Positions 19,300 through 61,329 of a DNA stretch of 62,203 nt are shown here, one piece after another. Made by a program: the position numbers and the translations under genes. The stretch comes from Psammoneis japonica (Eukaryota): the NCBI GenBank assembly GCA_008632985.1, contig QPGO01000310.1, positions 1 through 62,203 on the forward strand, read 5' to 3'. Position 1 is the first letter of the stretch; each line of letters starts with the position of its first letter. The notes beneath the pieces were generated by a model. It was given only the letters and a program-made list of their open reading frames with translations. It was not told the DNA's origin and searched no databases.

Positions 19300-22200
19300 A
19301 CAGTACAGCGCAGCAAGGGCAGCAATGTGAGAAAGGGGCATTTGTGTTGAAGAAGCGTGTAAAAAAATTGGGGTTTGGGCGCTGGCAGATTGGGAGGTTC
19401 TTGGACACGGCTCATGCAGGGGCACCCCAGACTGTTGCATTCAGTGCTGACGGGCATGGTTTTGGCCACGCACCAGTTTTGGCAGTGCACCTCAATTGCC
19501 CATGCCTTGTCACTGGGAAGATTGCAGAGGATCAACTTGAGTGACTCCTTGTGTGCATTTGCTTTCCTCTCCATTTGCTTTCCTCTCAGCTGCCCCCCCC
19601 CACTTCTTCACCTCATGAGTTGTGGCCTCTTTGTGGATGGCCAAAATGATTTTGGAATGGCCGCGAAGTGAGCTGTTTTGCATTGCTGGCTCCATCAGAT
19701 GTGAGAGATGGATGGCCCTGCAACCAATTTGACAGGCAGGCCGCCCCTGGGTTGTGCCTGGTGCCAGAATCTTGCAAATCAGTGCTGGAGGAGCTGATCC
19801 TGGATGGCATCTTTGACATCAGCAAACAACTCTTGTTGGGTGCACCACACCACTCATGCCATTTGGAGCTTGTGAAGACCAGCACGAGCAGCTCTTGTGT
19901 TCTTGTGGTCAGTGGTCAGTCGCTGTTTTGTCAGGGCCTTGGATTGCCAAGATCTGTGCTTTGGATTTCTCAGATGCCCGGCTGTGGTCGATTGATTCCT
20001 TCTCACCCACAAAGCCTCAAAGACAGTGCTGCCTGCAGAGACAGCAAATCATGACTGGAGCATTTTTGAAGTTTTTGGCAGAGTGGCACACCTGTGCTTG
20101 GGGCCACATGCCAAGGAGTCAACAAGGCCAAGTCCATGAGCTGCCATTCCTTGTGGGTCACCTTGATTGACACCTTTTTTTTGCTGAAAAGGATGGCCAT
20201 CATTCTGAAGTGGCCACAAATGTTCAGAACACTGCAGAATTTTGCACCAAATGACCACAAGTGTGCCTCATGTCATGCAGTGCTTGGGCCATGCTTTGCT
20301 GATGACAAGAACCGCTGCAGTTGTCTTTGAACTTGCTTGCGCTGTTCCCAGAGCAACTTCATCATGTTGTCTTGGCCCTCAATTTCTGCTTCTAGTCCAG
20401 CACACAACTGATCTGTGCCAAAAGCCTCTTTGGCTTCTTTCCCAGCAGCTCCAGCCAGGCAAATGCCGAGACTTGTGACTGGTGCCGGAGAAGTCTCTTT
20501 GCCATGAGCGCTGTGCATGCTGCCTTTCTGGGGCAAGAATGTGTTTGCCAGGCAGTTGGCAAACATGTGCAGCACTTCTCAAAGCTGTCCACCAGCTTTG
20601 CTGCATTGGAGCAGCCAATGCTGTGTTTTGGCATCCAATTCTGCCAAGTCATCCTGTGCTCCCTGATGACAACTTTTGTGTGATGGTCTTGACATTGCTG
20701 TTGGTGACAATGACATCCCAGCAGAGTTCAGGCAGCTCACTTGAGTCACTGTGAAAATGTGGTCTTCAACTTTCTCATCATCTCTCCCTTTGTCAGCAGC
20801 ACCCTTCTCTCTTGCTTCACTCTTGGGTGTGGTGTTTTCCTTGTCAGCTTTCTCAGCACATGCCCACCTTTTTTCTCTTTGCCATTGACATCAGGGGTGG
20901 GGTGTTGATGAGTTGACAATTTTTAGCTGAAGCAGACAGGTCTTCCAGAGGTGAAAACCTTTTGGGGCTTTTTGCCCAAATTCCCATCACTCAAGCCACA
21001 AGTTGGGAATCCTGCCTTTTTTTTTTGCACTTTTTGAAACAAGCACAAGAGCTGCATCATGGTTGGCCCTGCTTGCTGGGTGGTGTGCAAGCAAGCAATG
21101 AGTTTGGTGAGCAGGCATCAATGTGCAATCACAGCACAGCTTGCTTTTTCCCTGGGATGTTGTTTCTTTTTCAGCAGCATGGGCAGGTCAGGGCTTGAGT
21201 CTCAACTCATGTGCTCTTTGGGCAGGAGGCCTCACATTCATCAGATCACAACTGTGCCATGGTTGCCCATGTTGTTGTTCATGTTGTTGTCATCCAATGG
21301 GTCCAAGGTTTTTTTTGGGGGGGGGGGGTTGCCGCTCCATTCAAAATTGCTTGAGTTCAAAGAAATTTGTTGTGAATTTTTCTCTCAATTGCGGCACAAG
21401 CACAAAAAGACAGTGGTCATCACATTGAAAATCATGTCCAAACTTCAGCAATGAGAGAGACAAGTTTGGGAATGTTTTTGCACTTGATGCAACTTTTCTG
21501 GCTGCAAAGCTGTTTCTTGCCATGGTGCAGCACTCCTGTGGCTGTGACATCTGGTGCCACATCATTGCTTGAAGTTGCGGTGCAAGTGCAAGTTCCAGTC
21601 TGTCATGGGATTTCTCAATCAACTCAGATGAGATGCCAGCTGGGTTGATTGCATTGGTGGTGGGAAGGTCATGTTCATCAATCAAAGTGGATTGCAGCTT
21701 GGGGTGACAAAAGGCATGCATGGAGACATGCAGCCTGTGCACAGCATTGTCTCTGATTCCCACATCACCAGCAGCTGCATCTTGACAGAGCACAAGTTGC
21801 TGGGCCCAAAAAATGGTTGGCAGTCATGTGGAGCTGGCGTTGATGCCCCCTCATGACACCTGTGCACCCACCTCAATCTGAGCTCAGCAGATGGCAGAGT
21901 CAGATGTCAGAGGATTGGCTGGAATGATGGGCACGTCCAGTTCTGCAAATTTCATGTTGGGGTGGTTGATGGCAAAAAAGGCGAGACTCAGAAGGAGCTG
22001 AGAAGGTGTGTGTTCATCCACTCTTGCATGTCCAAGTGTTCAAATGGAGCTGTCACCAAACAAGTCAGTTCTGTGGGGGGGGCTTCTTGTTGGAGATCAG
22101 TGGCTTTCTCTGCTGTGTTTCCCCTGATCTGCAGTCAATGGATCATTGTCAGCCAGAGTCATGGGATCAGGGGTGTCAGCATGATGCATGCCATGTGCAA

Positions 22201-24560
22201 GAAAGAGTGGATGGTGCAAGAGGCAGCAAGTCTGTGGGGCCCTGTTTCACAGCCACCCTGCTGTCATTCATTTGTGTCAGAGCTTGGCAGAGTGGGTGGC
22301 CATCACTTTTCTGGGTCCAGTGATGGCCTTTGTGAAAATCTGTGTGGCAATCTTGGCAGCCTTCTGACACCACATTGCAGTCACATTGACCATGTTGGAT
22401 GAATTGGCTGGATCAAACAAGATGTGAATGGAGGCAGTCAGCATCATTGAGGACAGGGAAGTCAGCAAAAGAAAGGCATTGTTTGCCACATGACAAGCGT
22501 GGTTGGGTCTGGGCTTCATTCAGTTGCATGTTGATTTTGTGGATGGCTGCCTTGCAAATTTTGTGCATTTCTTGGGCTTGCACATCATCTGCTGCAATGT
22601 CCATGGCAGATGCCTTCTTGTTTGCCAAAGCTGCTGTGGTTTCTTCCTTGGTCTCAACAGTGGAGTGCATTGTTGTCCTTGTTCAGAGTCTCAGAGGGCA
22701 CGACATTGGCTTTGCTTGTCATTGGCACCTGGGTGGCAGCTGTCATGGCAGCTGTCGCAGTGGGCAAATGAACACGCATCACTGAGGGTGTTTTGACAGA
22801 CCTTGTTGCAGTTCCAGGCTGTCAGGTTCTTTGAGCACCAAAGCAAGGGTCTCTGCAATTTTTTCATTTGCAGAGGTGTGCTTTGTTGATGTCTTTTTGT
22901 GCTTCAGCAGTCTTGCCATGCAGGCATTTGCTGTGGCATGTGTTGCTGATGAAGATGTCAAGGGCAGCATTGCCCATGCCCTCAACAACAGCCCTTGAGA
23001 GCCACAGAGAAAGTCTTGGAATTCTGTGTCTTTTTCAGGAGCATCAGGTTGTTCTGCACTGGTGGGCATGTCTTCATCATCTTGCAGGGGTGCTCATGCC
23101 ACATTGGGTGGTGGTTGAATGTGGTCATCTTCAGGGTGGTGCACTTTTGTCTAGAGTGCCAGTGGATGATGTCTGGGAACTTGGAGTTGGGCTCCCAGAA
23201 GGCATTTCTTTCCTGAAGGTGCTGGCAAAGGACAAAACTGTTTTCACATGGTTGAGCTGGGTGAGCATGCAGAGGGGCAAAGTGTTGTTTTTGTTGTTGC
23301 TTGCTGTGAATCCCCAGTGTTTGTTGTCTTTCATGAAGCACCGTGGTGGGTGGATGAGTGTCTTGATGTCTGATGCTGGGTGTGTGACTGTGACACACAA
23401 CTGGAGGTGTGTCATCGGCACACACAACTCACAGCCCACACTCAATCAGCTGTTGCCTGCCTTTGCTTCATTTCTTGCCATCTTTTGCAGGCTCAACTGT
23501 TGGTGCCCCTTCCTTGGCAAAGGGCTGTCAATGCTTGCATTTTTGGATGACAGCCACACTCCCTTCCCGCCATCTTTGATGCACCATGTCATGAGCATCT
23601 TTTCTCTGACTGTCTCTGCGTTCACCTTGTTCTTGTCACTTTTCAAACATTTGCACTCACTCCTCTGAACAACTGTGCTCCCTTGTTTCTTGGCCTTTTT
23701 GAAACATCAATGCAAGAGCTTTTTCCCTCCTTTGCATTTGTGTTTTGAACTCCATTCCATTTTCTCCAGCCCAAAATTTGCCGCCCGACAAATGGCTGCA
23801 AAGATGGACAGCGCCACGTGTTGCTTTTTTGACATTTCACTTTTGTTGGTGTCCCCCACTGGGTGTGGTTTTTAGGCTTTCCATTCTTCAAACACATCCA
23901 ACCATGCAAAGAGCATCCAGTTGATTTCCTGCTTGACCCAAAAAAACCAAAACAGACAGACTGTGCAGCAACAAACAACCCTGCCATGTGCCGCCAATCT
24001 GCGCGCTGGGAATGTGGGTCAATCTGATAGATTTAACAGCACTTGAAATGCAGAAGAGATGGCAGCTGGCTTCAAATGTTGTTGCAGAAGCAAAGGAAGA
24101 AGAGCAAGGAGAGCTCTTTCTGGGGCTGGCACGCTGGGAGCTTCTGCCGCGCCATTTGCCAGTTTCACGCGACGGCGAGAGAGGGCCCCCACTCGCAACA
24201 AGTTTTCTCCAGCAAGATGTGCTCTCCACCACCATTTTTCTTTTGTGTCATCATTGACAACATCTTGGAATTGCCCACAAAAGCTGGCATCATGGACTGG
24301 ATTGGATTGCTCCTGAAGAGTCATCGCCAACCCATGCTGCGCTTTTCCCCTCTGGACCAGCTCCCGCCCCACACAGAGGGGGGCAGGGGCCAGCACTCCT
24401 GGCATGTCCAAGACCTGCTGCCCTTTTTGTTTTCCCTTGATTGACATTGCAAGGAAGCTGCCATCAGGCACAAAACTGATTGGTGCAGGCAAAATGCCAC
24501 AGCAACACAACAACACCAATCTTGAAGTGCTGGAGAGTCGCCAAGAAATAATGCAGCAAG
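19300..24560 (-). mobile_element. Degenerate non-LTR retrotransposon (reverse transcriptase, CRE-like signature)
   Basis: Minus-strand remnants KEAFGTDQLCAGLEAEIEG (~20380-20440) and KGVNQGDPQGMAAHGLGL (~20120-20175) match the RT motifs QLCAGxxAGxEG and GVxQGDPLxMxxYxLG. Heavily TG/CA-mutated; ends are inferred from composition. Confidence 0.75.
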
Positions 24561-26987: not shown

Positions 26988-29900
26988 ATGGACGGAAGCG
27001 CACGCTATCGCCTTTGCAGAGGTGATGCCCTTGACGAGAGCAGAGGTGTGAACATCCAGAGCAAGAAGGTGACACGCAAAACACTTGATGAGAAACTTGA
27101 TCTCGTCATCCACTTCAGCAACGCCCCAGGTCTTGCCAAAGGGATTCTGGGAAGAAGATTCCATGCAGTGCCATCACAGCACAGATGGCAACAATGACCT
27201 TGAAGCATTTTCTTGCCCACTTGGGGCTTGTGAAACCAGTGTGCTGATGAGGTTCACCCTGACCCCTCATTCTCCTTTGATGACAATGTTGATTTTGATG
27301 ACACACATGGCACCTTGCCAATGGCTTTGGCTTGGAGTTGTTTGGTCCAAAGCAAAAGAGCACAACTGCAGTGCAAACCTCCAAAAATCAGTTTGTGCAG
27401 CACATGAATTGGAAAATTGGACACCTTCTCCCAAATGTCCAAGCTCAAGCTCTGCTGCATTCCATGTGTTGCCCCAAAGTTGTTTGCACCTGCAACATTG
27501 TCAGGCAATCTTTTGGCTGTCCTGACACATGGCCCCACATTGTGGCTCATGGATGGAGCATGAAAAAATCACATCTGGCAAAGGGTGGACAGCAGGTTCT
27601 CTGGCGCCAAAGATCAAAAAAGCTGTCCAGCACTTGTCAACACACCACAAAACTGGGAACAATGAGGGCCTTCATCATGATCTCATCCACAACCTCAATG
27701 CAATGGTGGAGGAGTTTGTGTGCCAGATCATTGCTGGAGATGACCTTGAAGACCCAGTCACTGGCAAGCCTCATTTCATTTTTCAATGTGCCGGTCTCCT
27801 CACCTTGATGCCTTGGTTGATGGCCAAGCACATTGTGAGAAGTGTTCTGCTTGTTTTGTCCCTGACATTGTGTTGCGCATTAGCACATCTCTTGTGCAAG
27901 CCAAAAGACAGAAGTTGTTGGTTTCCGCAGATTTTTTGCACCAAGGTTGTTGCCCAGGTGATGTGGCGCACACCCACTGACAGCTTTCTTGCCATTTTTC
28001 ATTCAATTTGTGTTGGCTCAGAGGCTGGTGTTGTGAAGGCTGACTGCCTGCATGACATCAAGGACAAGGTGACAAAGGAAGGAAATGCCAGGTCCTGGAG
28101 AGAGGCTCATGAAGCAAAAGCAAGTGCATTGCTGCAGCAAGAATTTTGCAAGAGCTGTTCCAAAGAGCAGCCCAGAGCACCTTTTCCAGCAGACAAAGCA
28201 AGCAACTTGCATGAGAACAAAGGCTGGCTGCTTGGAAGAAAAAAATGCAAGAGCTCAAGTCAAAAACAAAGCAAAGAATTGGAGGGCAGTGCACACAGGT
28301 GGCATCTGCTCACATGATGGTGGCTGGCTTCCTTTTCCATTTCACTTGCCCACACTGCATTCTTTCATGTGCCTTCTTTGAATGTCCTTCACAAAAAAGG
28401 CCATGATGCCAACAGCAGTTGTTGATCCACAATCTCTTGTGGTGCAGTGATCATCTTGCATCAGCAAGGGAGGTGTGCTGGCACAGCTGCACATCTGGCT
28501 TTCCCAGCCACTTTGTTGGAGTTCAGCACTCACACTCCCTCTTCAGCTCTGTCTCCACCAAGGATGTTGATTGGTCCTGGCCATCTGCTCTCATCCCCCC
28601 CCATGGAACCAGACAACATGTTGTGGCTGCAGAGCTCAGTGCTCTCAGCACTTTGACCCACTCAAATGTCATCCTCTCACCTCTCAACAAGTTGCTGCTC
28701 TCACCTGTCATGACTGCATGTCATTGACAAGATGATGACTGGCACGGAGCACATGCTGCACCACTCTGTTGCCAATTTCCACCCCACAGTCATGATTCAC
28801 TTGTGCAGCTGTGTTTCAAGATGGAGCTGTCATCTTTTGCACCTGTCATTGCAAGACTCATTGTGCCATGATTGAACAATGCCAATTTGAGCATCATTTT
28901 GCATTTGAAACACAAATGATGATCTTGCTCAGCAGCAATCACAAGTTTCAGACCTGTGTTGTTGACAATGACAATCTTGCTCTTGGCACTGTTGCTGCTG
29001 TCCAACCTCCAGTTGAGGTGCAAACTCTGGCCCATCACAGGAGCATGTTCATCACTGGCCATTTGTGCCAAGTTGCTTGCACATTGACACTGGTCTCTCC
29101 ACAGAGATTGTTGCTGCAAATGCTCCATTTTTTATTTTAAAGCAAACAAAGCAAATGAGATGTTGCTCATCCCCATCTTTGCACTGAATGTCATGACTGG
29201 AGCTCCTCCATTGACTCCCGCTGCTGCAGCGCCAGATCCCAAGTTGACAGCAGATCTAAAGACACCATTTCAGGCTTTCAGCACCCGCAAAGTCAACTGC
29301 CAAAAATGAAGCCACTTTGAAGCAGAATTCATCAGATGCGTGGCCCATGCATTGGCAGTTCATTGCTGGATGACAACTGTGACCAAACCAGCAAGTGCAC
29401 CTGCCATTTTGCATGGCAACATTGCCACTCCAAAGCACTTGACTCCATTGAGCATTCTCAGCTCTCTCTGCAATCAGCAAATTTTTGCCATGACTTCCAA
29501 GCTCAGTGGCCAACTTAAAATTGCGCCAATGGCCCCACCAACAATCTTGACAAGGACCACGACCCAAGATCTGGTTGAGGCTCACAGGGCCTGTTCCAGC
29601 TCTGGGTGATGCAGAACAGGCACCACAGACAAGAAATGCTCTGTCACATCAAGCCAAAGAATGGCAGAGTGTTTGTTCAACCATTTGCACAAATTTGACA
29701 TGGTGAGCCTGCAAGCTGAGTGTGAAGCTGGAGTGGCAGCTGCAGACAACTCAGCCCACAACAAAGCTGAGTTGGGTGAGATTGATCTGTCTCAGCTTGA
29801 GTGGCCCAAGCAAGAATGACTGAGGTGCATTGGGAGACCTCAAGGAGTTTTCAAGCTCCACTCTGCTCATGATGGACTGAACACATGTGGTGCCAGTGCT

Positions 29901-31841
29901 TGAACAGTCATTGAGAGCACTGAGAATGATCCAGCAGCACCTGCTTTTGCACAGATCTGGCTGCGGAAGCTGGCTCTGAAGCATTGTGCTCAAGGTCACA
30001 AACATTTCACCTGGGTGCCACATTCATTTGGTGCCCTGTCACCTCAATGCAGTCAAGACCACAGAGTGCAAGGGTGTCAGCTCTGAACAACCCAGCTGAG
30101 ATCAAGTCTGACAATGTCTGCACAGAGTGGCCTGCAATCTGCTGCCTGGCATCATCACTTGTGTTCAAGAAGCACACAGCAAACTCACAAGTGTGAAGAC
30201 TGCATTGGCTGCCAAACTCCCAGAGAGCAATCTCTCACCTCTCTGACCCATCCCCAAGAATGGGAGTCCCAAGCCAAAAAAGTGCCAAAGACTGTGGCCT
30301 TGAGGGATGCACAAAATGCACCTGGCCCAAGTGCAAGGCTGCTTGCCTGAAGAACAACCCTGCTGCAGCTTGCAGATGCCCAACCCACTGAGAATCCACT
30401 TCAACAGCAACCCAAATGCAGGCCTCTCCCATCCTCCTGGTGCACTGACTTTGCCAGAGAGACCGCCCACTGGGCTTGACTGAGACAACAACAACTTGAG
30501 CTGGAAGTTGCTTGGGAAGCACAAGGAATGTGGGTCTGACACCTGGGCTGTGCCAGAATCATTCCATTGCCAACCAACCAGGCAGTTTTAAGCAGAAGGT
30601 CAAGGAGAAAGCACGCTGTCTGGTGACCTGTTTTTGCCAGAAATTCAGTCATGGCATCCCCGCAGGTCATTTGTTTTGACGCTAAAGACAAATGTGCTTG
30701 CTGCCTGACACAAAAGCTGCAAAGCTCACACCCAGAATTCTGTGAGATGAACATCGTGAAAAGCCCTGCCCAGAGCTGGAGCACATCAATTGTGCTGCAA
30801 GTCAAAGCGAAACAGGCCCAAAGTCATGTGCTGGACACACCATGCTCATGAATTTTGTGCTGAGTTTCAAAAAATGCAAAATGTTGCATGCCCTGCTGGA
30901 AGTTTCTGCCCAAAGCTGAGCCTTGTTTGCAGCCAATGACATGTGGTTGCTTCTTTTGCATGGCACCAAGGGCCGGGCTTTTCATCAGGGAGATGCACCC
31001 CATGCTCGAGTGTTTGGTCACCACCGCGGAAAGGCCATTGGCAACATCCCATCTGTTTTGAAGTTATCTGCCTGCTGGTGTGTGTGTGGGGGGCATTTGC
31101 CATGGCCCTTCACACACTTTTCAGCTTTGTGCAGGCAACCTTGCACTCCTCAGATCCTGGCAGGGGGCTGAGAAAGGCCAAAGCGGCTGGCACCCACAGC
31201 TTGTGTGGCTCTGAAGGCAATGTCAACAAATGCAGTCACACCAAGACAACACACAGTGTGAGGTGTGAGGAACAGCTCCTCCTGCACCATTGATGTGGGA
31301 GCAAGGTGCAGAGAGGGAGCTTTTGGCCAATGGAAAGCGCGACTTTTTTCTCATTTTCAGCTGCAAACTGAGAGATTTCTTTCTTCAAAAAGTTCATGTG
31401 GTTGTGAAGCTGGGCCCCAAATCACATTTGAGCTTTTTTGTCCACCATGTTGTGGCATTTGATGATCAAACCAGTTGTCAGTTGGCGCCACAGGAGCCAG
31501 GGTCTTGGCTGCAATTTGACTTTGAGCAGCACAGCCCTCCCAGAGGCTGTTGTGCAGCATGACGCAACAACTGCATGCACCGAAGGTCCTCAAGTTGACA
31601 AATGTTTGAGTGGAACATCATCAACCAGGTTGTGCTAGCTCCATTGTGGTGGGATGCACCCTGGAAGCAGCTTGAGCATGGTGTCATCGCCAAAATGCTG
31701 GCTTCTTTTGTGTCTGAAATCATGCAAGATGATGAAAGCCACTCTGCGCCATCAAAGAATGGTGGTCGAGAACTGCACAAAACAGTTTGTGATCAATTGA
31801 ACATGGCAATCAAAAGGAAGGTTTCTCAAACACACGAATGA
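26988..31841 (+). pseudogene. TG/CA-mutated relic of a possible ~4.85-kb coding region of unknown identity
   Basis: An unmutated ATG-start segment (MDGSARYRLCRGDALDE) grades into TA-free sequence. Protein-like fragments on + run to ...KRKVSQTHE* at 31841, where normal composition resumes. Confidence 0.4.
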
Positions 31842-48716: not shown

Positions 48717-48897
48717 ATGATAATTCTCTGCAGATTCATCGTCTGCAACATCGCGCTTCCGATAGGATACTACTTCTATTATAATTAACTTCTATAACTA
48801 ACGTCTCTGGAAGAATCAGCTGTAATACATGTATGCATAGAAATACTACACGAGAGTGGCTTTAACGACCTACTCCTTTGAGGCATCCGGTTGGACA

Positions 48898-51193: not shown

Positions 51194-51301
51194 TCACGTG
51201 CGCACGTGACGAGCGTCCCGTGCGCACGTGTCGAGCGTCCCGTGCGCACGTGTCGAGCGTCCCGTGCGCACGTGTCGGGGTCTGTCACGTGCGCACGTGA
51301 C
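51194..51301. repeat. Three 22-bp tandem units bracketed by two perfect palindromes; seven CACGTG in total
   Basis: gagcgtcccgtgcgcacgtgtc at 51211, 51233 and 51255. tcacgtgcgcacgtga at 51194-51209 and gtcacgtgcgcacgtgac at 51284-51301. Confidence 0.9.
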
Positions 51302-52869
51302 GGTCTTAAGGGGGACCGCCGACCTATTTTTTCCGCGTTTATCCTAAAATTAGCAATGTGTTTGAATGCGTTTATTCATAATTGTCAATTTTAAATGCAA
51401 GAGTTGTTCGATCGCCCACGAAAACGAGAACATCAGGCACCGCGATCGAAGCACGACGATGACGGCAATTGCGCTGTCTCTCAAAATTGGCCCAGTGGCA
51501 CGAGGGACGAAAGCACACAAATCAATCTGAACTGCATGACGACAATGAAGCCAATGAGTGTCCCTCGTGAGGTGGCACTTTGCAGCTCACCGCTCGTCGC
51601 GAACATCGTCATTGTCGCTCGTCCTTTTGTCGTGTTGTTTTCTGTCGCGACCCATCAAAAATGTGTAAAAACCCGGAAAAGACATGCAAAAAAAAAGAGC
51701 CGACGGCCCGCCTTAAAAGATCGCAAAGAAAAAAAGAAAGGCTCATGTTGGCACAAACATTGTGTGTGCTGCATGTTCGCGCACTTTTCCATGCTGGCAC
51801 AAAAAAAGCACCCCTGCGAAGCCAGCAGCGCAGCTTTGAATTGCTCTGTGAGCTGCTGCAAGACAGAGCTTGGCTTGGTTTTGCCCATTTGGGGATTCCC
51901 CAAAATGGCAAGGGGGGCGTGCTCCAGCTCTGGGTGGGACCTCGCACCACTGAGCTGTGGCACAATTGTTTTTTGTCATCCGTCGCATGTTTCGCACGTG
52001 CATTTCTGCGTGTTCCATCACAAAAAATTGTCCCACACTGCCTGATTTGCGAAGCCAAATGCTTTCTGTCATCTGCGCTTGTGCCAACAAAAGACGCAAC
52101 TGTGACATCGACAGTTTTTTGAATCGCGTCGCATGTTGCGCACGTAGATTTCTGCGTGGTTTTTGCGACATTTTGTGTCATTTTACGGTGCACTTGTTGA
52201 GCGATCCGTCCAGCAACTTTTGACATTTTTTGTTGCAGCGCAATTCTATGATGTCTTAAGAATCGCGCAGGGTGGGCGCTTTGCAAAAACGTCGAGTGTC
52301 AAGTGGCACAATTGCAGACGCGTTCCAGGTCTGGGTGGGACCTCGTGCTGCTGAACTGTGACATCGACAGTTTTTTGAATCGCGCCGCATGTCGCGCACG
52401 TGCATTTCTACGTGATTTTGGCAAAATTTTGCATCATTTTATAGCGCAATCATCAGGCGATCCATTCAACAACTTTTAACATTTTTTTCTTCTACGCCAT
52501 TCTCGAGTGTCTTAAGAATGGCGCAGGGCAGGCGCATTGTCCAAAACTTCGAGTGCAAACAGAGACACATGTGCTGCAAACTTGGCCATTTGTTTCATGT
52601 CGAAGACAAATGTGTCCATCAACCAGAGTACGAACCACAGAGCTCGCAGGCAGAATTCTGCGGGGCAAATGTCACAAAAAGCCCCACCTGGGACTGGAAC
52701 CCATCTGCACCACAAACTTGGCCGTTCATTTGATGTTGAAGATGAACACACCCGTTGATTAAATTCTCGTGCTGCGGAGCTCGCACATAGAATTCTGCGG
52801 GCCGAATGTCACACGGAGTCCCACCCAGGGCTGGAACGCATCAAAAGTGCGCTGGGCATGTTCTTTGAT

Positions 52870-54570
52870 GTCCAAAGAACACACCCGGGCATGCTGCAAA
52901 GAATGCACTTCAAGTGTGGAGGAGGAGACACGCTTGCAAAATTGCCTCTTTTTCTGTTGGCGATCATTCGCACAACCATTGCTTGACAATTTTTCTGCTT
53001 AGCTCGCACGCAGAATTCTGCGGGCCCAACATCACAAAAAGTCCCACCTGGGGGCTGGAACCCGTCAAGGGCAAGGGGGAGCTGCCTTGTCCTTTTGGGG
53101 AACACCCGGGAAATGAGGGTGATTTGGCGGGAAGGAACGGCTGAAAGGGGTCAGGGGAAGGAACAAAAAATGAGTGCAGCGCGGCAGCTCCCGCCTTGTT
53201 TTGTGTGGGCGGGTGTGCTTTTTGCCACATTCAACCAGAAAGCCGCGCTCTGCCGCCGCCGACCATGATGGATGCATCGACAAATCAACACAAAGCAGCC
53301 CCTCATGGTGCAGCAAAGGAAGAATGAACTTCGCCATTGAATCACACACATCGACGTTGCTCATGTGCGGCTCTGTTTTTGCCTTGGCATTTGCTCTGGA
53401 GCCGCTGTGGCTTGCATTTGTGACCGCGCGACACAAGAGGGAAAAAATGACACACCACATTCTGCACATTAGACAGGTCAAAGGGAAGAAGAAACATCGT
53501 CAATCAATCAGCCACATTTTTGTCAACCACGCGCGACTCCACTTTTGCCTTGTCCTTCACACTGGACGCCTCGTGGCTTGCCTTTCTGAGTGCATGACAA
53601 AAGAGTGATCTGAGCAACTCCCTTCATTCTGCACACAAGATGTGCAAATTGGAAGAATGAGAGTGACCATTCAATCCACCACATTGTTGTTGTTGGCCAT
53701 GTGTGGCTCTGCTTTTGCCCTGGCCTTTGCCACATGCTTTGTGGCTTGCATTTGTGGCTGCACAACAAAAAAACAACTGACGCCCAACGATCAATTGCGC
53801 TGGTGTTCTGCACATGTGCAACCACATTTCATCTTGTGTTTTGTGCCATGGATCCCGTTCAATCAATGTTGTCGAATGCATTGAGCGGCGTCGTGATTGA
53901 CGGGCAACAGCCATCACAAATGGGACGCGAGCGCGCCATGGCGTGTTGCCCATTTTTGTTGTGGTCGGTCGATTGTCTGGCTCATGCGTGGAACGCGCAG
54001 AAATGCATGAGAGGGAAAGCACGGGGAATTTCCAATGCACCATTTTTCATTCACGCATTGAGGGCACATGTGACGAACGGCAATTCACGGCGATTCTCCG
54101 GGAACTCACCCTTCCCGCGGAAAAACAGGGTGAAAGGTGGCAGCCCCGGGGAATTTTGAGAAAATGCACGGCAAAACCAAACTGAGAGACAGAGCAGTCT
54201 GGCCGTCAGCTTTCTTGGTTGACCAGCCTTTGACCCCCCCCTGTTGACCAACAACTTTGATGGTGGAAATGACCCCTTGGCTCAAGCTTGGCTTCTCGCC
54301 AAAATCGTTGGCTTTGCCGTCAAGGGTGTTGAAGGTGTCGCAGCCCCTGGTGTGTTGGCAAGGGGACTGCGGCTGATGGGCTCCAGCCCTGGGTGGGACT
54401 TTTTGTGACGCTGGGCCCGCAGAATTCTGCACGCAAGCTCTGCAGCAAAATTGTGCAGCAATGAACATGCCAACAATCGCCAACAGAAAAAGAGGCAATT
54501 TTGCGAACGCACCTCGTCCTCCTCCACACTTGAAGCACATTCTTTGCAGCATGCCCGGGTGTGTTCTTCA
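52870..54570. repeat. ~200-bp inverted repeat pair (52870-53065 / 54375-54570)
   Basis: cacccgggcatgctgcaaagaatg.cttcaagtgtggaggagga...gcagaattctgcgggccc versus its reverse complement near 54410-54562. Confidence 0.8.
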
Positions 54571-55753
54571 GTCATTGAAGAGCGCACCCACCAGCGTGCT
54601 TTTGTTGCCAAAATGACAGCAACAGAAGATTGGGCATGTGGGGCTCTGCCACACATCATTGTGAGTGAGAAATGGGATTTTTGAGTCAGAGCGGCGTGTG
54701 AGTCATCAAACCCTCTGTTTCAAGAAACGAGGGTGTGTGGCTGCAGCGGGAGCTCCATCCAGCCCAAGCCCAAGAAATGCATGGTTCTCAGGCCTGGACC
54801 CAGAGCAACTTCAAGTGGTTTTTGAAGGCAAAATTCCCAAATGATCTGCGCATGCAACATCTGAATGGATTGCTCCAACAAACAGAAGATGGTCACATGA
54901 ACATGTCAGCTGCAACAAAAGTTGGGGCCACAGTGCAAAAGCCACTTTTTGTCTCACATGAAGTGCTTGCAAGACAGGGCTGCTGCTGGTGGCAGGAGCA
55001 TGAAGCATCAAACAATGTTGCTCAAGCTCAATTTGTTGTTGTGTGCGTTGATTGAATTTTCTCACTGGAAGGGCCCAAGTCACGCTGCTGAGACAAAAAA
55101 AGTGCTGGGATTGTGCGAAGAGGATGACACTGATGATGCACGTGCTGAAGCTTTTTTGATCTTGAGGCTTTTCTGCCCAAGGCTTGGGATCAGCTCTGGC
55201 AACAAACAGCAAACTCCAGGCCTTTCTTGCATCATGAAAAAGGTTTGCATTGCTGGGTCAAGGCGCCACTTGGTCAGCTCTCCATCATTGCACGTGCGTC
55301 AGATGTGTCAGAATGCTGTCCTCCAGCGCAAAAGACAACTCTGCCTCCCATGCCATTGACTGCAAATTGGCCAAAGGATGGGACACCTTGGCACTTGGAT
55401 GTTTCTTTTGTCAGCTGGAATGGCGGGAAAGCAACAAACATTGGGAATCCACACCACATTTGAGTTTGTCACAATCCAAAAAACTTGAAATGTGACCCCA
55501 GCGACTTGGGCACTTGAGGGGCGGTGTTGTCATGGTGGGGTCAAAATGAAAAAGCTGGGTGCCTCAGCATTTTTTTTGTTTTGGAACAAACTTGGAACAA
55601 GCAGCTCAAGAGGTGCACTTGTGAGCCTGCTGTGGGGCTGCCACACATGTCCCACAGTGTCTGGCACTTGGCCACCCAGTGGGCTTCTTGATGCGGGGCC
55701 GACATTGCTGTCATTGAAATGTTGGTCAATGGGAGTGACTTGTGGAATTGTTG

Positions 55754-57456
55754 AAGTGCATTGCCAAGGGAAACAAACAGAGTTGTGTTGCAAGTGAAAA
55801 CAACAAAGAACCCATTTTTGACATCCTCTTTCCAGGCCGCTGGGATTCTTTGTCATGGAACACCTTGAAAAGCTGCTTGCTTGCCAAGTTGATGTTCTTG
55901 TTGCACCAGTGCTTTGTCGTGCTTGGGCACACTCAATTCCTCTGTGTCAAAAAACTTCACCATGTTTCTTGATTCCTGCGTCAATTTGGCAAGATGATGT
56001 TCATTCTCTCGCTTTTGCTTTTTTCAATGGCGGCACATGAAAGTGCTGGTGACTGTTGCAGCTTTCTGCCAGCTGAACATTTGCAACTAAATCAGATTCT
56101 TTGAGTGATTGTCGCGCCTTTGCCGCTCCATCCAGAGCCATCTCACCAGCTCTCTTGGGTTTTGCCACAAAAGAAAAAAAGTCAAAAGGAGGTGGCAAGT
56201 GGTGCCAACAGCACAATGCCACAGAAACACACAATCAACACACATTGCATGCACAAATCATCAAGCTGTGCATGCCAGACAACTCTTTCAGCAGGGTTGC
56301 TTTCAAGCTGCGGGCTGTCTGCCTGCATGTTGGACATCCCAGAAAACAATGTCCGCTGTGTGGATCAAGAACATTGGATGCAAACAATGTGCGACTGAGC
56401 AAGCAATGCAACTTTGGGCACAAGATGAGTGCAAATGATCCTCTCTCCACTTCTCTGCTCAACTCTCGCCACAGCAATTTTCTTGGAAACTCTCATCCAT
56501 CCAGTCATCTGCTGCCCCGCTGCAACATCAATTTGGCTGACATTGAAGAAAATGAGAAAAGAAGCTGCAGCTGATGAGAGCACAAAAGAGCCCAAGTTGC
56601 GGAGTTGTTTTTAAGTGCGTCACCAAGGGAAACAAACAGAGTTGTGTTGGGAGTGAAGACAACAAAGAGCCCATTTTTGACGTCCTTTTCCCAGGCCGCT
56701 GGGCTTCTTTGTCACAGAACACCTTGAAAAGCTGCTTGCTTGCCAAGTTGATGTTCTTGTTGCACCAGTGCTTGTTGTGCTTGGGCACACTCAACTCCTT
56801 TGTGTCAAAAAACTTCGCCATGTTTCTTGGTTCCTGTGTCAATTTGGCAAGATGATGTTCATTCTCTTGCTTTTGCTTTTTTTCAATGGCGGGGCACATG
56901 AAAGTGCTGGTGTCTGTTGCAGCTTTCCAGCCAAACATTCGCAACTAAATCAGATTCTTTGAGTGCTTGTTGTGCCTTTGCCTCTCCATCCAGAACCATC
57001 TCACCAGTTCTCTTGGGTTTTGCTGCAAAAGAAAAAAGTTAAAAGGAGGTGGCAAGTGGTGCCAACAGCACAATGCCACAGAAACACACAATCAAAGCAC
57101 GTTGCATGCACGAATCATCAAGCTTTGCATGCCAGGCAACTCTTTCAGCAGGACTGCCATCAAGCTGCGGGCCATCTGCCTGCACACCGGACAACCCAGA
57201 AAACAATGTCTGCTGTGTGGATCAAGAACATTGGGTGCAAACAATGTGAGACTGAGCAAGCAATGCAACTTTGGGCACAAGACAAGATGAGCACAAATGA
57301 TCCTCTCCACTTCTCTGCTCAGCTCTCACCACAGCAATTTTCTTGGAAACTCTCGTCCATCCAGTCATCTGCTGCCCCGCTGCAACGTCAATTTGGCTGA
57401 CATTGAAGAAAACAAGAAAAGAAGCTGCAGCTGATGAGAACACAAAAGAGCCCAAG
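55754..57456 (+). repeat. Two tandem ~860-bp diverged copies
   Basis: Copies begin aagtgc..ccaagggaaacaaacagagttgtgttg at 55754 and 56613, and end cacaaaagagcccaag at 56596 and 57456. Confidence 0.9.
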
Positions 57457-57689
57457 GGGAGTCAAACAACACACCACATTGCTCACACAAGATGCACTTG
57501 CACTCAGTTTGGTGCCCCAAATGTCACACAATTTTGATTGAAGAGCAGCCAGAGGGATTGGCTCCTCTTTTTAAGAGGAGCTGCCCTGTGGCCAGTGGCG
57601 AGCTGCACTTCATTCATTGCCATTTTGTGTTTGGCATGCAAGTGCTTGCAATGGAAGCAGCAGAGCCCTTCGGTCTTTGGTTGCACTGG

Positions 57690-60600
57690 CGTCAATGGGA
57701 GTCATTGCGGCTCTCAGAGTCGCTGCACAGAAACTGTGCAAAAGAGCACCAGAAACAATCGCTGCCAGTCTGTCCGCCCTTCCACACTCAAGTGTCGACT
57801 TCTCAGGAAATCAATTGAAATGTCATCTCTCCGAAGGTGTTGCTCTTCACCATGCAAGTCAAAATGCCTTTGGTCAGATGACATTTCAGCTGAGTTCCCG
57901 AAAAGTCGCTGGCTCCAACCACCCTCTCGCGTGACATTGTGCGCATTTCCACCTCGTGCAAAATGCTGGTTGTGACTCTTGCAACATTTTGAATGATTTC
58001 TGTTGATCTTGAATCTGCGGCAAGTCATTGTGATTTGTGACAGATTCTTTCATCAGAAACACGCATGCGCGCACACACACACTCTCCATCGTGAGTCTGT
58101 GTGTCGACCATCACTTTTTGTTTTTGCATGTGTTTGCATGTTTTGGCCCTTTGGTCTTTGATCGCACTGGCTTCAATGGGAGTCATTGTGGCTCTCAGAG
58201 TCATTGTGCAGAAATTGTGCACAAGAGCGCCAGAAACAATTGTTGCCAGTCAGTCTGCCCTTCTGTGCTCGAATGTCAACTTCTCGGGAAATCAATTGAA
58301 ATGTCATCTCTCCAAAGGTGTTGCTCTTCACCATGCAAATCAAAATGCCTTTGGTCAGATGACATTTTAATTGAGCTCCCAAAAAATCACTGGCTCCAAT
58401 CACCCTCTTGCATGACACTGTGTGCATTTCTGCATGATTTGTTGTTTTTCCTTGGTGAAATGCTGGCTGTGACTCTTGCAACATTTTTGAATGACTCCCA
58501 TTGATCTTGACATCTGCGGCATTGTGACGCACTCTCCTTCATGAGTCTGCACATCAACTGCAACTTTTTGTTTTCATTTGTGTTTGTGCGATGATGAAGA
58601 GCCTGGGTGATGACAGTGTCATTTGCAGTCTTCAGGAATGAATGAATCCGAGTGCACGATGCAAAAAATTCAAAATGTTGACGTTGGCAACTGACGATCT
58701 TTGAAGGTGGGTCCAGAGGTGCATGAATCATCTGTTGTCATTTGCACACTCGCACTCGCACACTCAGCATGCACACGAATGACAAAACGATGAGGCGAAT
58801 CACGCTGGCATGTTTGGCTGTAACAACTTGCGGTTTTGAGAGAATTTTTGTGGGGTGAGAAAAGCGGCTTGATCGCCNNNNNNNNNNNNNNNNNNNNNNN
58901 NNNNNNNNNNNNNNNNNNNNNNNNNNNNNNNNNNNNNNNNNNNNNNNNNNNNNNNNNNNNNNNNNNNNNNNNNNNNNNNNNNNNNNNNNNNNNNNNNNNN
59001 NNNNNNNNNNNNNNNNNNNNNNNNNNNNNNNNNNNNNNNNNNNNNNNNNNNNNNNNNNNNNNNNNNNNNNNNNNNNNNNNNNNNNNNNNNNNNNNNNNNN
59101 NNNNNNNNNNNNNNNNNNNNNNNNNNNNNNNNNNNNNNNNNNNNNNNNNNNNNNNNNNNNNNNNNNNNNNNNNNNNNNNNNNNNNNNNNNNNNNNNNNNN
59201 NNNNNNNNNNNNNNNNNNNNNNNNNNNNNNNNNNNNNNNNNNNNNNNNNNNNNNNNNNNNNNNNNNNNNNNNNNNNNNNNNNNNNNNNNNNNNNNNNNNN
59301 NNNNNNNNNNNNNNNNNNNNNNNNNNNNNNNNNNNNNNNNNNNNNNNNNNNNNCAGCCAAATGGGCTTTCTTGTGTCTCTGACGTCAGCGCAGTTGCATG
59401 GCATGTGTTGCTTTGGAGCTCGCCCATCTCCGAATTTTTGTTGGCTCATCTCCATGTTGTCAACAGGGGCAACAATGATGGTGACAAGTGGCGGCAACTG
59501 CGCTTCCACTCCATGCAGTCATCCTGCTCAGCCCAAGCAGCTCACAGACAGCACCGCTGGCTTTTTGGTGAGAGGTGAGCTTCTGGTCTCTCATCAGTTT
59601 CGCGCCCCATTGGCCAAGCTGCTCTTGTTCTTGCAATTGTCTCAGAGAGTGAGCTGGCCTTTGCTCACCCATTCTAGACTTCAATGGCGCTGTTGTGCTG
59701 AAATGCAAGCCACCCGCAGCAGCACATGATCTGTTTTTGAGCTTGGCTCTCATTGCCTGTCATCTCCACACATCGACTCGACTGCTTGAAATGGAAGCAG
59801 CAGAGCCCTTTGGCCGCACTGGCGTCAGACGCGCTCCAGCTCCAGGCGGGACCTGGCACTGCCGAGCTGTGAGACATCGGCAGTTTTTTGGATTGCGCTG
59901 CATGTTGCACGTGCAGAAATGTGCGAGACTTTTGTGAAATTTTGTGTCATTTTGCGGTGAGCTAATTGAGCAATCTGTCCAACAACTTTTGACATTTTTT
60001 GTTGCAGCGCGATTCCACAACGTCTTCAAAATCACGCAGGGCAGGCACGTTTGCAAAAACGTCAAGTGGCAAGAGGCCCAATTGCCAAATTTTTGCACTG
60101 CTGAGCTTGCGCGCACAATTCTGTGGGCCCAATGTCACACGGAGTCCCGCCCAGGACTGGAGCCCATCGTCAATGGGAGTCATCGTGGTTCTCAGAGTCG
60201 CCGCATGGAAATTGTGCAGAAGAGCGCCAGAGACAATTGTTGTCAGTCTGTCCGCCATTCTGCACTCAAATGTCAACTTCTCGGGAAATTGACTGAAGCA
60301 TCATCTGACCAAAGGTGTTGCTCTTCACCATGCAAATCAAAATGCCTTTGGTCAGATGACATTTCAGCTGAGTTCCCAAAAAATCACTGGCTCCAATCAC
60401 CCTCTCACATGGCATTGTGTGCATTTCCACCTCATGCAAAATGCTGGTTGTGACTCTTGCAACATTTTCGAATGATTTCTGTTGATCTTGAATCTGTGGC
60501 AAGTCATTGTGATTTGTGAAGGATTTTTTCGTCAGAGAAACACGCACGCACGCACTCTCCGTCGTGAGTCTGTGCGTCGACCGTCGCTTTTTGTTTTTGT
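57690..60600 (+). repeat. Three copies of a ~330-450-bp module (57693, 58175, 60171)
   Basis: caatgggagtcat..ctcagagtc and tcaccatgcaa.tcaaaatgcctttggtcagatgacattt recur at all three sites. Confidence 0.85.
58878..59353. other. Assembly gap (N run)
   Basis: 476 consecutive N. Confidence 0.99.
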
Positions 60601-61329
60601 CCATGTTTCCATGTTTCAGCTACGATGATGTAGAATCCGGGCAATGACAATGTCCTTTGCAGTGCTGCAAATTGCCAAACACTTGGCAAAAATGCGCGTA
60701 AACCGCCTTCGTTCGCTTCTGAAGGGAAAATTTCCATTCGTTGCGATTTTGTGCCAGAGCCACGTAGAAATGCACAGCGCTGCATCTTGCTGCTTTCCAA
60801 CTCCCGCCTCCGACCTCCGACGAAGACACGGTGAAGCACGAGGATGCACCCGACAATGGCGGTGCCCATTGTCATCGATTCTGCCAATTTTCACACTCTC
60901 CCGTGTTTCATTTAACTCCAAATGGCAATGAAAGAGAGCTTTGGTGCTTTGCATTTTTTCCATTGGCGGCTTCACTCACATTCATTCTCCGTCTGCACAT
61001 TTTGACATCCCAGCCAGCGCAACGCGCAGTTTTTGCTTCCATTCAGGAGCATTGCAGCTCAAGCTGTCGTTCATCAACCAACACTGGTGAAATTCGTTCG
61101 ATTGTTGAATGCCTGGTGTTGCTGTGCACACATTTGAGGCAATGGGAGGGCAAGAAATGGCTCTTGCAAGAGCGCACAACGCGTCATGTTGCTTGACAGA
61201 TGCAACAGACATGGCAGAGTTGGATGTGACCAATGAAGAGGTTGAATTTGTGGTGCACAGGAGGGTGAACATCAACTTCTCTCTGTCGGCGGAGGGAGTG
61301 ACTCGCTTGCAACCAATCTTGGATTAGAT

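Follow-up and report, generated by a model that had tools for sequence, protein, structure and literature searches.

The window analysed here, a stretch of 62,203 nucleotides, holds four discrete islands of 4-9 kb each from which the dinucleotide TA has almost disappeared, separated by genes with a TA O/E of 0.5-0.6. We consider it about three-in-four probable that these islands record an in-place, regional process that turns TpA into TpG or CpA in nuclear, non-coding, high-copy repeats, most likely of a diatom, together with a slower decay of CpG, and that the agent of the first change is a putative TadA/ADAT2-like deaminase. The sequence shows that the changes are context-specific transitions confined to regions with sharp borders, and that they spare the neighbouring genes.

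Loss of TA with retention of CG in the segment 51400-54620

The first-pass annotation had described the segment 51400-54620 as rich in CG and nearly free of TA, and the counts bear this out. In its 3221 bp (GC 0.51), TA was found 17 times against 135 expected (O/E 0.09) and CG 174 times against 175 expected (O/E 0.83), the expected counts being taken from the ordinary DNA of the window, which carries 42.0 TA and 54.4 CG per kb. At this background density the Poisson probability of 17 or fewer TAs is 1e-37 and the loss of TA amounts to about 87%, while CG shows no loss at all. A depletion of CG equal to that of TA, named in the annotation as an outcome that would speak against its reading, is thus absent from the segment. 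TG and CA have gained equally, with 310 and 307 occurrences (O/E 1.55 and 1.52).

The composition of the segment is uneven. The CG O/E is 0.9-1.3 at 51.5-52.5 kb and drops to 0.34 at 54.5 kb. Of the 17 remaining TAs, 16 are located 5' of 53001. The left border is sharp: the eight TAs of the abutting stretch at 51307-51392 are followed by the next TA only at 51666. A contig of X2 covers positions 51306-51621, so that this border falls within a repeated element.

The segment lies at the left end of island 4, which is made of short high-copy repeats (Table 1), and it is the least CG-decayed part of that island. Summed contig depth across the segment is 11,000-77,000, compared with about 58 for single-copy DNA, and at position 53050, in the ~137-bp repeat, the depth in X1 is 25,781. 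A 167-bp tandem repeat occupies 53318-53820, between the inverted arms, and the inverted pair 52875-53067 and 54568-54374 compares at 84.7%. Island 4 as a whole contains 26 TA (O/E 0.046) and 312 CG (O/E 0.59) in 8745 called bases; a run of N lies inside it at 58878-59353.

Table 1. Positions of the TA-poor islands of the window and of the segments and repeat units of island 4
Feature	Position	Strand	Details
Island 1, TA and CG erased	2900..7600 (borders approximate)	.	3000-7000: TA 10 (O/E 0.035), CG 25 (0.116), TG 465, CA 477
Island 2, TA and CG erased	19310..24500 (borders approximate)	.	19370-23600: TA 3 (O/E 0.012), CG 29 (0.111), TG 540, CA 445
Island 3, TA and CG erased	27010..31500 (borders approximate)	.	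26700-31000: TA 21, CG 39
TA-rich stretch abutting island 4 on the left	51307..51392	.	8 TA in 86 bp
Island 4, entire TA-poor block, ~9.2 kb	51393..60620 (right end approximate)	.	TA positions at borders
TA-eroded, CG-keeping mosaic of short high-copy repeats	51400..54620	.	Dinucleotide counts, repeat anatomy, contig depth
~256-bp unit, two tandem copies	52098..52610	+	80% identity; third copy 59870-60085
~137-bp unit with GCAGAATTCTGC palindrome, three copies	52570..53065	+	Further copies 54374-54447 (-) and 60098-60168
Inverted arms 52853-53053 / 54387-54590, flanking 1.3 kb	52853..54590	.	82-85% complementary; repeat comparison
Part of island 4 with CG decaying too	54621..58877	.	TA 6, CG 70 (O/E 0.32)
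Tandem duplication within 54621..58877	55740-56596 / 56597-57456		90.5%
Right end of island 4	59354..60620	.	TA 2 (O/E 0.026), CG 52 (O/E 0.65)

Loss of CG is nested in loss of TA

In islands 1-3 both dinucleotides have been lost. The CG O/E is 0.11-0.15 there, and TG/CA reach an O/E of 1.9-2.0, compared with 1.5 in the segment 51400-54620; the share of YR steps is constant, at 0.24-0.25, across all regions of the window. The islands include 2-kb stretches that lack TA entirely, and TA makes up 0-0.5% of their dinucleotides. No mutual similarity was found among islands 1-3, and neither island 2 nor island 3 occurs a second time in the window; contigs of X1 contain 0.88 of the sampled words from island 2. 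Repeats at the border of island 1 were considered for a comparison of inside and outside copies and proved uninformative, both copies being TA-poor already.

We classified 122 windows of 500 bp by their TA and CG content. All 28 CG-low windows were also TA-low, and none of the 79 TA-normal or TA-intermediate windows was CG-low. CG was normal or intermediate in 15 TA-low windows; it was normal in five, four of which lie inside the segment 51400-54620. This nesting of CG loss in TA loss argues that TA loss is a wider, faster and independent process. The same arrangement is seen in L005, an independent metagenome contig from a relative, where a 3-kb stretch has a TA O/E of 0.11-0.23 and TG/CA of 1.6-1.8, with a CG-low core nested within a broader TA-low zone. 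When metagenomes were searched for a degenerate form of the 137-bp repeat, 0 matches were obtained. The proposal of the first-pass annotation that TA is eroded by a distinct process, able to outrun CpG decay, is therefore supported by the TA lost from the segment at no cost in CG, by the 500-bp windows and by L005.

The further suggestion that the segment is at an early stage fared less well. It is consistent with the nesting, but the youth of the segment is not demonstrated, as its copies are 80-85% alike and those of the CG-poor part of island 4 are 90% alike, and weaker CpG methylation would account equally well for the retention of CG. In the tandem duplication of the CG-poor part (55740-57456), CG is kept at 3 sites and stands against TG/CA at 17, among 54 transitions and 11 transversions. 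Inside island 4, surviving TAs and CG O/E were weakly correlated (rho 0.33, p = 0.21).

Sequence context of the surviving TAs

The TAs that survive in the islands are mostly YTAR (30/46, compared with 215/1283 in the background, p = 1e-12) and hardly ever RTAY (1/46, compared with 380/1283, p = 3e-6), which implies a 5'-TAY target. The survivors of L005 show the same bias (YTAR 19/36 vs 96/409; RTAY 1/36 vs 95/409). A in 5'-TAY-3' is favoured about 3.5-fold over A in 5'-TAR-3'. A two-strand additive model predicted a -ln survival of 3.57 in mixed contexts, where 3.44 was observed, and in the segment mixed-context TA is down by 19.7 per kb, with the favoured products YTGY and RCAR up by 16.4 and the disfavoured products up by 3.2; both calculations assume that the ancestral composition of the islands was that of the window background. 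Polarised copy differences gave five cases for the TAY rule and two against it. TG and CA were not found in strand-coordinated runs, the runs test giving z values of -0.93 to +0.95 in the islands and -0.8 to -1.0 in the background, and there is thus no indication of a deaminase acting processively on one strand. One case of CA-CA facing TG-TG was not generalised, the runs test being the same as in the background.

Comparison of repeat copies

The three copy differences quoted in the first-pass annotation were found exactly where it had placed them: ATTTCTACGTG at 52404 differs from ATTTCTGCGTG at 52002 and 52148, CTTTTAACAT at 52473 from CTTTTGACAT at 52217 and 59986, and TAGAATTCTGCGG at 52788 from CAGAATTCTGCGG at 52651 and 53011. 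TA is the minority state in all three (1/3, 1/3 and 1/3-4), so that simple parsimony alone would make it derived, which the annotation had recognised as damaging to its reading. However, parsimony within the window gives an ambiguous polarity, because a directional process yields parallel changes, and two other observations point to TA as the ancestral state.

The first is the frequency of double differences in which one copy has TG and the other CA, which require a TA or CG ancestor: 42/631 in the islands compared with 1/511 in gene duplicates (Fisher p = 3e-10). Pair tables of the ~256-bp unit contain four such differences, together with TA against TG/CA at three sites. Transitions exceed transversions by a ratio of 5-10 in the larger copy pairs of the islands, compared with about 1.2-1.3 in two gene duplicates, and most TG/CA steps are common to both copies of the island pairs. 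The other observation comes from an X3 contig that carries another copy of the leader of the 256-bp unit. It matches window positions 52324-52353 at 27 of 30 bases, and all three mismatches are TA in the contig and TG in the window; the window copy at 51923-51952 has CA at two of these three sites, in an alignment judged by eye. TA is one step from both TG and CA and is the sole observed state of which this is true, which argues that it is ancestral at these sites. Among the nine positions listed between 51368 and 61634 at which reads had another letter, TG/CA of the window faced TA in the read at three and CG at two, and the reverse at none. X1-X3 represent one sample, possibly that from which the window was assembled, and are thus not independent proof.

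Coding content

No Pfam family scored above threshold in the 11 stop-to-stop ORFs of 51400-54620, and a six-frame read-through of islands 2 and 3 (12 frames) returned 0 families. Among 42 stop-to-stop ORFs, 38 from islands 1 and 4 and four from the gene region between islands 2 and 3, the sole lead was DUF1361, in an island ORF, with an E value of 0.0014, below the cut-off. Viral, transposon and reverse transcriptase families were absent from the island scans (12 read-through frames and 38 island ORFs). A tRNA scan and an Rfam search found nothing, and a search for the spliced-leader motif gave 0 matches, whereupon a dinoflagellate origin was set aside. One gene family of the window has diatom proteins as homologues, and it is on this family that the probable assignment to a diatom is based. 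In the protein atlas, the ORF at 36579-39005 had weak, bacterial VWA-like leads only (scores <=0.80); no homologue was found for the ORF at 40170-42083, and the FG-GAP ORF had seven matches.

Discussion

In the reading that we favour, TpA in a block becomes TpG or CpA through A>G changes on either strand, probably by enzymatic deamination of adenine in DNA. The bacterial TadA target has the context U33-A34-C35, and the T-A-pyrimidine preference deduced here is similar, with A deaminated after U/T; TadA/ADAT2 and ADAR enzymes act on RNA, whereas the present process would act on DNA. The second, slower step converts CpG to TpG/CpA in the same kind of block; it is complete in islands 1-3 and barely begun in 51400-54620. 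As the repeat blocks of diatoms are CpG-methylated, this step is presumably the deamination of 5-methylcytosine. The TA step may protect the genome by disabling repeats and foreign DNA, on the model of Bigelowiella natans. Activity on DNA has been reported for few ADAT2 enzymes only (cited in bioRxiv 10.64898/2026.01.13.699255).

Hypermutation of DNA that is specific to TpA is known to date from a single preprint, on one chlorarachniophyte, and the islands would place it in another lineage. In mutation-accumulation lines of B. natans, two hypermutable regions acquired 231 mutations, of which 230 were A>G or T>C changes, every one of them at TpA; the de novo rate was about 1000-fold that of the rest of the genome, and the process was active in some lines only (Mettrop et al., bioRxiv 10.64898/2026.01.13.699255, 2026). 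The targets were integrated viral DNA, and the authors proposed a role in defence and, as the enzyme, an adenine deaminase of the ADAT2 type. The long-term mark was TpA depletion with CpA/TpG gain in clusters of at least 3 kb, mostly unannotated, and TE-type domains were enriched in TpA-poor genes (same preprint). The islands resemble this system, as read from standing sequence, in that TpA gives TpG/CpA regionally, beside ordinarily composed DNA, and independently of CpG mutation, given the CG count of the segment and the 15 TA-low windows that keep CG. They differ from it in several respects. The B. natans proof consists of de novo mutations; that species is a rhizarian, whereas the window has a gene family with diatom homologues; and its active regions keep TpA at 3.3% and 9.2% of dinucleotides, far from the 0-0.5% of the islands. 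The nested CpG loss and the 5'-TAY preference found here have no counterpart in the main text of the preprint, which mentions neither CpG nor an extended motif, and the targets here are short high-copy repeats in which Pfam scans detected no viral genes.

Two other systems bear comparison. In the diatom Cyclotella cryptica, CpG methylation is reported to be found mainly in blocks of repeats as long as 30 kb (PMC5124317), and about 6% of the P. tricornutum genome is reported as methylated (PMC6604790). The islands are likewise several-kb repeat blocks that alternate with gene-rich DNA, described as unmethylated in those diatoms. Diatom CpG decay would explain why islands 1-3 are CG-free and why CG is still being lost at 54.6-58.9 kb, but it cannot cause the loss of TA; 51400-54620 lost TA and kept CG. 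Fungal RIP also disables repeats and mobile DNA by dense context-specific transitions (PMC2621366, PMC3318451). However, RIP is described as C>T mostly at CpA, which raises TpA and lowers CpA/TpG, whereas the reverse is seen here (TpA O/E 0.01-0.09, TG/CA 1.5-2.0); it is also described as dependent on duplication, and islands 2 and 3 lack a second copy in the window.

A bolder proposal, which we put forward only tentatively and consider improbable, is that a single editing system common to distant SAR lineages (the rhizarian alga and diatoms) reads a mark on the chromatin of repeats or foreign DNA and removes both dinucleotides, acting on A in 5'-TAY and more slowly on C in CpG. One TadA/ADAT2-like enzyme might possibly do both, the family being reported to deaminate A and C. 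If this were true, the end product would be DNA without TA or CG, and the loss of CG from the islands would not be passive methylcytosine decay.

Modification of thymine could produce the same regional change of TA to TG/CA, if T at TpA were converted to a base like 5-hydroxymethyluracil that mispairs with G and gives T>C. T>C on one strand is A>G on the other, so that the two cannot be distinguished by sequence, and TG and CA did gain equally in the segment. Hydroxymethyluracil in dinoflagellate DNA prefers TpA. We nevertheless regard this chemistry as unlikely, as we know of no base of this type in diatoms, the 5'-TAY preference is similar to U-A-C, the context of the anticodon-loop site targeted by TadA/ADAT, and an ADAT2 candidate was identified by the B. 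natans authors. There is still less to be said for a composition inherited by repeat families that were TA-poor at amplification or arrival, for example from a TA-poor foreign source, with no erosion in place. Such inheritance would account for most TG/CA steps being common to copies, but the sites with three states (TA, TG and CA) and the 42 double differences postdate duplication, islands 1-3 are in the same state although they are unrelated unique sequence, and the survivor gradient, with RTAY lost first and YTAR last, marks a rate process.

Selection or avoidance acting through a nuclease, a restriction-like system or an RNA-level sensor would fit the fact that TA and CG are the two self-complementary YR dinucleotides. 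We give it very little weight: no genes could be detected in the islands, which are bordered by normal genes at a TA O/E of 0.6, and zero-TA runs of 2 kb with a transition-only copy spectrum fit mutation and are unexpected from selection on non-coding repeats. An artefact of sequencing, of base-calling of modified bases or of assembly might be suspected from the N runs in the window and from the possible common origin of X1-X3 and the assembly. It is hardly credible, as the Logan contigs of X1 reproduce the TA-free stretches with 0-3 differences per 423-502 bases, the unrelated metagenome assembly of L005 has the same signature, copies differ from one another at TA/TG/CA sites, and B. natans shows the signature as new mutations in Illumina data. 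ADAR-like A-to-I hyperediting of repeat transcripts, fixed through reverse transcription, seems to us just as far-fetched. ADARs favour a 3' G, whereas the preferred 3' neighbour here is a pyrimidine, and they are to our knowledge metazoan. Nor were a reverse transcriptase or any other family found by Pfam in islands 1-4 (12 frames, 38 ORFs), and the strand-coordinated clusters typical of ADAR are not matched by the islands, whose runs test, at z about -0.8, was like that of the background. The feature that does agree is the 5' U/T preference, which is common to ADAR (bioRxiv 10.64898/2026.01.13.699255).

A literature search that covered few subscription journals found no report of TpA-directed hypermutation or of TA-free repeats in diatoms; for B. 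natans it found nothing on CpG methylation. For annotation, blocks free of TA and CG are a source of long spurious ORFs, since the stop codons TAA and TAG are lost from them, and such blocks thwart homology-based repeat annotation. For the process itself, the 5'-TAY preference narrows the search for the enzyme, the window points to an order of events in which TA goes first and over a broader area, with CpG loss following inside it, and the range of targets would extend beyond viral inserts to cellular high-copy repeats. The presence of this footprint in a diatom-like genome and in an environmental relative suggests that the process occurs widely in one of the major groups of ocean algae, where it would then shape the decay of repeats, GC content, the death of genes and how readily transposons and integrated viruses can be detected.

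TA is lost from 51400–54620 whereas CG is retained

The segment 51400–54620 (3221 bp, GC 0.51) contains 17 TA (O/E 0.09) and 174 CG dinucleotides (O/E 0.83), together with 310 TG (O/E 1.55) and 307 CA (O/E 1.52). At the densities of the ordinary DNA of the window, used as background throughout (7.8–19 kb and 31.6–51 kb; 42.0 TA and 54.4 CG per kb), 135 TA and 175 CG would be expected. The TA deficit of about 87% is real and highly significant (Poisson P = 1e-37) and there is no CG deficit, as the first-pass annotation had proposed in describing this stretch as poor in TA but rich in CG. The left edge is sharp, with eight TAs within 51307–51392 and the next only at 51666. The segment is also uneven: all but one of its 17 TAs come before 53001, and CG O/E drops from 0.9–1.3 to 0.34 towards its right end.

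The segment belongs to the last of four TA-poor islands. Islands 1–3 have a TA O/E of 0.01–0.07, a CG O/E of 0.11–0.15 and a TG/CA O/E of 1.9–2.0. To the eye, the sequence of island 2 is complex and non-repetitive, and essentially all its pyrimidine–purine (YR) steps are TG or CA. The overall share of YR steps is 0.24–0.25, equal in islands and background. Island 2 (19370–23600) shows a strand skew (T 0.295 vs A 0.207, G 0.268 vs C 0.230, 540 TG vs 445 CA), the pattern expected if A>G and C>T were both commoner on the + strand; the other islands lack this skew, and a runs test revealed no clustering.

The DNA between the islands consists of ordinary genes with a TA O/E of 0.5–0.6: FG-GAP/ASPIC genes, a duplicated gene family and a 7TM-like gene. 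Islands 2 and 3, read through in 12 frames, matched no protein family; of 42 ORFs scanned, 38 are in islands 1 and 4, and these produced a single match, below threshold. Many ORFs of 110–280 aa without a family match are found on both strands of islands 1–4 (e.g. 22868–23668, 51395–52045). They are spurious, since TAA and TAG disappear with TA, and are easily mis-annotated as genes.

Features of the window and of the metagenome contig L005
Feature	Position	Description
Island 1	about 2.9–7.6 kb	without both TA and CG
Island 2	about 19.3–24.5 kb	without both TA and CG
Island 3	about 27.0–31.5 kb	without both TA and CG
Island 4	51393 to about 60620	26 TA in 8745 called bases, CG O/E 0.59; 51400–54620 is its left third
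1.05-kb direct repeat	1–1049 and 1876–2926	99.8% identity, ending at left edge of island 1; final ~170 bp related to 400-bp repeats within island 1 (2755–4218); could be a very recent duplication or one introduced by the assembly
22-bp tandem repeat	51189–51299	CG-rich, 4.9 copies, 91% matches, ~100 bp left of island 4 edge; CG O/E 1.53 in the surrounding 500 bp
~256-bp unit	51400–54620; 59870	two tandem copies in the segment, third at 59870
~137-bp unit	51400–54620; 54374; 60098	with GCAGAATTCTGC palindrome; three copies in the segment, then further ones
167-bp tandem array	within 51400–54620	
Inverted arms	within 51400–54620	flanking 1.3 kb
Duplicated two-gene unit	11647–13932 / 16803–19077 and 14150–16438 / 31905–34295	FG-GAP/ASPIC gene plus gene of the ORF 32417–34126 family; about 87% identity
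Second FG-GAP copy	17073–17780 and 18137–19006	broken into two ORFs
7TM-like gene	25465–26630	two overlapping ORFs in different frames, jointly resembling a seven-transmembrane receptor; NAAVY motif in the second
808-aa ORF	36579–39005	weak integrin-beta/VWA-like match (Pfam E = 0.0034, below cut-off); nearest protein-atlas clusters are bacterial VWA proteins (scores ≤0.80)
L005	960–2500	TA O/E 0.11, CG 0.47, TG/CA 1.78
L005	2500–4000	TA O/E 0.23, CG 0.75, TG/CA 1.62
L005, remainder		TA O/E 0.66, CG 0.77, TG/CA 1.21

CG loss is nested within TA loss

We classed 122 windows of 500 bp by their TA and CG levels. Where TA was normal, CG was normal in 67, intermediate in one and low in none; the corresponding numbers were 9, 2 and 0 at intermediate TA, and 5, 10 and 28 at low TA. 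All 28 CG-low windows are thus also TA-low, and CG loss without TA loss occurs in no window: CG loss is confined to DNA already without TA. Four of the five TA-low windows with normal CG lie in 51400–54620. At the island edges, TA depletion extends beyond CG depletion. The nesting of the classes and the extents at the edges therefore indicate that TA loss is wider and faster than CG loss. The earlier suggestion that TA erosion is a primary process, separate from CG decay and able to precede it, is supported by these windows and by the unequal losses of the segment. CG decay is still ongoing in island 4, where a 90% identical tandem pair (55740/56597) keeps CG at 3 sites and opposes CG to TG or CA at 17. 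Among surviving CGs, GCGC is 2.9-fold enriched and CCGA/TCGG depleted (0.35), from which no firm conclusion is drawn.

The segment is a mosaic of high-copy repeats

Short repeats make up the segment as a mosaic. Contigs from one public sample were placed on 42204–62203, giving 5,407 placements (909 at at least 99%, 1,577 at 95–99% and 2,921 at 90–95%). Word depth was about 58 for single-copy DNA against 11,000–77,000 summed per bin of the segment, a summed depth that is not a copy number. These repeats clearly belong to high-copy families. In contigs of X1, a sequencing run of this sample, TA-free stretches recur nearly letter for letter (0–3 differences per 423–502 bases in three records), and 0.88 of the words sampled from island 2 are present. 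As the sample is possibly the source of the assembly itself, this match excludes an assembly-stage artefact only.

TA is converted in place

The larger island copy pairs differ by 5–10 transitions per transversion, compared with about 1.2–1.3 for two gene duplicates of similar divergence, and about half of their mismatched columns fall in YR-to-YR steps. TG stands opposite CA in 42 of 631 cases in island pairs but in 1 of 511 in controls (p = 3e-10; the island pairs partly overlap, and their counts are not fully independent). Such doubles need a TA or CG ancestor that was resolved differently in each lineage.

The loose end of a contig from X3, another run of the same sample, carries a further copy of 52324–52353 that matches at 27 of 30 bases when compared by eye, and at all three differing sites X3 has TA and the window TG. 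The third copy of the window (51923–51952) has CA at two of them, so that, of the states observed, only TA is a single step away from each of the other two. Nine positions within 51368–61634, among the 40 of 217 listed, carried another letter in the reads: the window had TG/CA against TA in three and against CG in two, with no case of the reverse and four other changes. The three copy differences at TA sites quoted in the first-pass annotation are exact. TA is the minority state in each, and parsimony on the window alone would make it derived, which is the weakest link of the polarity argument. A process with a strong direction gives rise to parallel changes, which makes parsimony an unfair test in this setting. 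Read from the copies together, TA appears to be the older state and the changes to have been made in place, after duplication.

Surviving TAs point to a target motif wider than TA

The 46 TAs surviving in the islands are not random in context. YTAR accounts for 30 of them, against 215 of 1283 in the background (Fisher p = 1e-12), and RTAY for one, against 380 of 1283 (p = 3e-6). We considered a two-strand model in which TA can be attacked on either strand and A is attacked faster with a 3' pyrimidine, giving two good targets in RTAY, one in mixed contexts and none in YTAR. Assuming, here and for the products, that the islands started with background composition, TA survival is 0.004 in RTAY, 0.032 in mixed contexts and 0.205 in YTAR. 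For mixed contexts, the additive prediction of −ln survival is 3.57 vs 3.44 observed, with a rate ratio of about 3.5. The products follow: in 51400–54620, where CG is intact, mixed-context TA changes by −19.7/kb, YTGY+RCAR by +16.4/kb and YCAY+RTGR by +3.2/kb, and over all islands the ratio of favoured to disfavoured products is 1.44 vs 1.22 in the background (p = 0.005). Polarised copy differences agree with the TAY rule in five cases and disagree in two.

A similar island in a metagenome contig

ORF 32417–34126 has 27 homologues (36–55% identity, no self-hit). All six that carry an organism name are from diatoms (Attheya, Cylindrotheca closterium, C. fusiformis twice, a Bacillariaceae MAG and Seminavis robusta), and no Bigelowiella protein was named among the matches. 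A second ORF searched had no homologues and a third unnamed matches only. On the basis of this one gene family, the window is most likely from a diatom or a close relative, and not from the published B. natans genome; long ORFs free of introns also suit a diatom better than B. natans. The family gene is part of the duplicated two-gene unit, whose genes are 0.2 kb apart in the first copy and 12.8 kb apart in the second, a gap that contains islands 2 and 3 and the 7TM-like gene. The latter, lying across two frames, implies a frameshift or short intron; its TA and CG are normal despite the two erased islands either side.

Among 19 metagenome loci retrieved with an alignment of this family, one has an island: L005, a contig of 12.4 kb from a microbial mat that carries a homologue of 39% identity. 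In the other 18, no window has TA O/E <0.2 and TG/CA >1.5. The TA-poor, TG/CA-rich, non-coding region of L005 (751–4000) lies 2.3 kb upstream of the homologue, with no ORF of at least 120 aa in 960–2100. A CG-low core (1251–2500) is enclosed in a broader TA-low zone (751–3750), and surviving TAs are enriched in YTAR (19/36 vs 96/409, p = 5e-4) and depleted in RTAY (1/36 vs 95/409, p = 0.002). That another organism, assembled separately, has the same three features argues against an artefact and for a TA-erasing process that is probably lineage-wide.

Candidate mechanism and known systems

At the level of sequence comparison, we show that TA has been converted regionally and in place to TG/CA, by transitions only and with a TAY bias, and that TA loss is independent of CG loss and precedes it. 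A TadA/ADAT2-like enzyme that deaminates adenine in DNA would account for the conversion; these enzymes naturally act on an A preceded by U in the anticodon loop. ADAR editing has a 5' U preference in common with the process seen here and a different 3' neighbour preference. T>C change through a mispairing modified thymine would leave the same signature as A>G by deamination, and we regard it as unlikely. Adenine deamination of the ADAT2 type, the reading we favour, has been proposed for Bigelowiella natans (10.64898/2026.01.13.699255).

The TpA hypermutation of B. natans is the closest case to the islands. The preprint places 231 of 302 new mutations in two regions, one an integrated giant virus and the other a virophage; 230 of the 231 are A>G or T>C changes, always at TpA, and they arise in some lines only, at roughly 1000 times the usual rate. 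It also describes 124 clusters poor in TpA and rich in CpA+TpG, and names an ADAT2 candidate (10.64898/2026.01.13.699255). Its main text leaves CpG unmentioned and gives no motif beyond TpA (10.64898/2026.01.13.699255). Mutational signature and regional targeting are shared. In contrast, the window has diatom homologues in one gene family, its degree of erosion differs, and its targets are high-copy repeats in which viral genes were not found, whereas those of B. natans are integrated viral regions. Nested CpG loss also sets the islands apart.

That CG loss would be the ordinary deamination of methylcytosine is suggested by diatom repeat-block methylation: the genome of Cyclotella cryptica carries mainly CpG methylation, concentrated in blocks of repeats as long as 30 kb that alternate with unmethylated, gene-rich DNA (PMC5124317). 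In P. tricornutum, methylation covers about 6% of the genome, and the passages on its mutation-accumulation lines describe mutation biased from GC to AT, with no effect at TpA (PMC6604790). In the diatom literature searched, mostly outside subscription journals, we found no report of TpA-directed hypermutation. Fungal RIP is a functional analogue that works in the opposite direction, creating TpA. The process may likewise disable repeats and foreign DNA. This kind of phenomenon has been described very recently, in one other lineage only, to which the islands add testable points: a TAY motif, CG loss that follows and is nested within TA loss, and repeats as targets.
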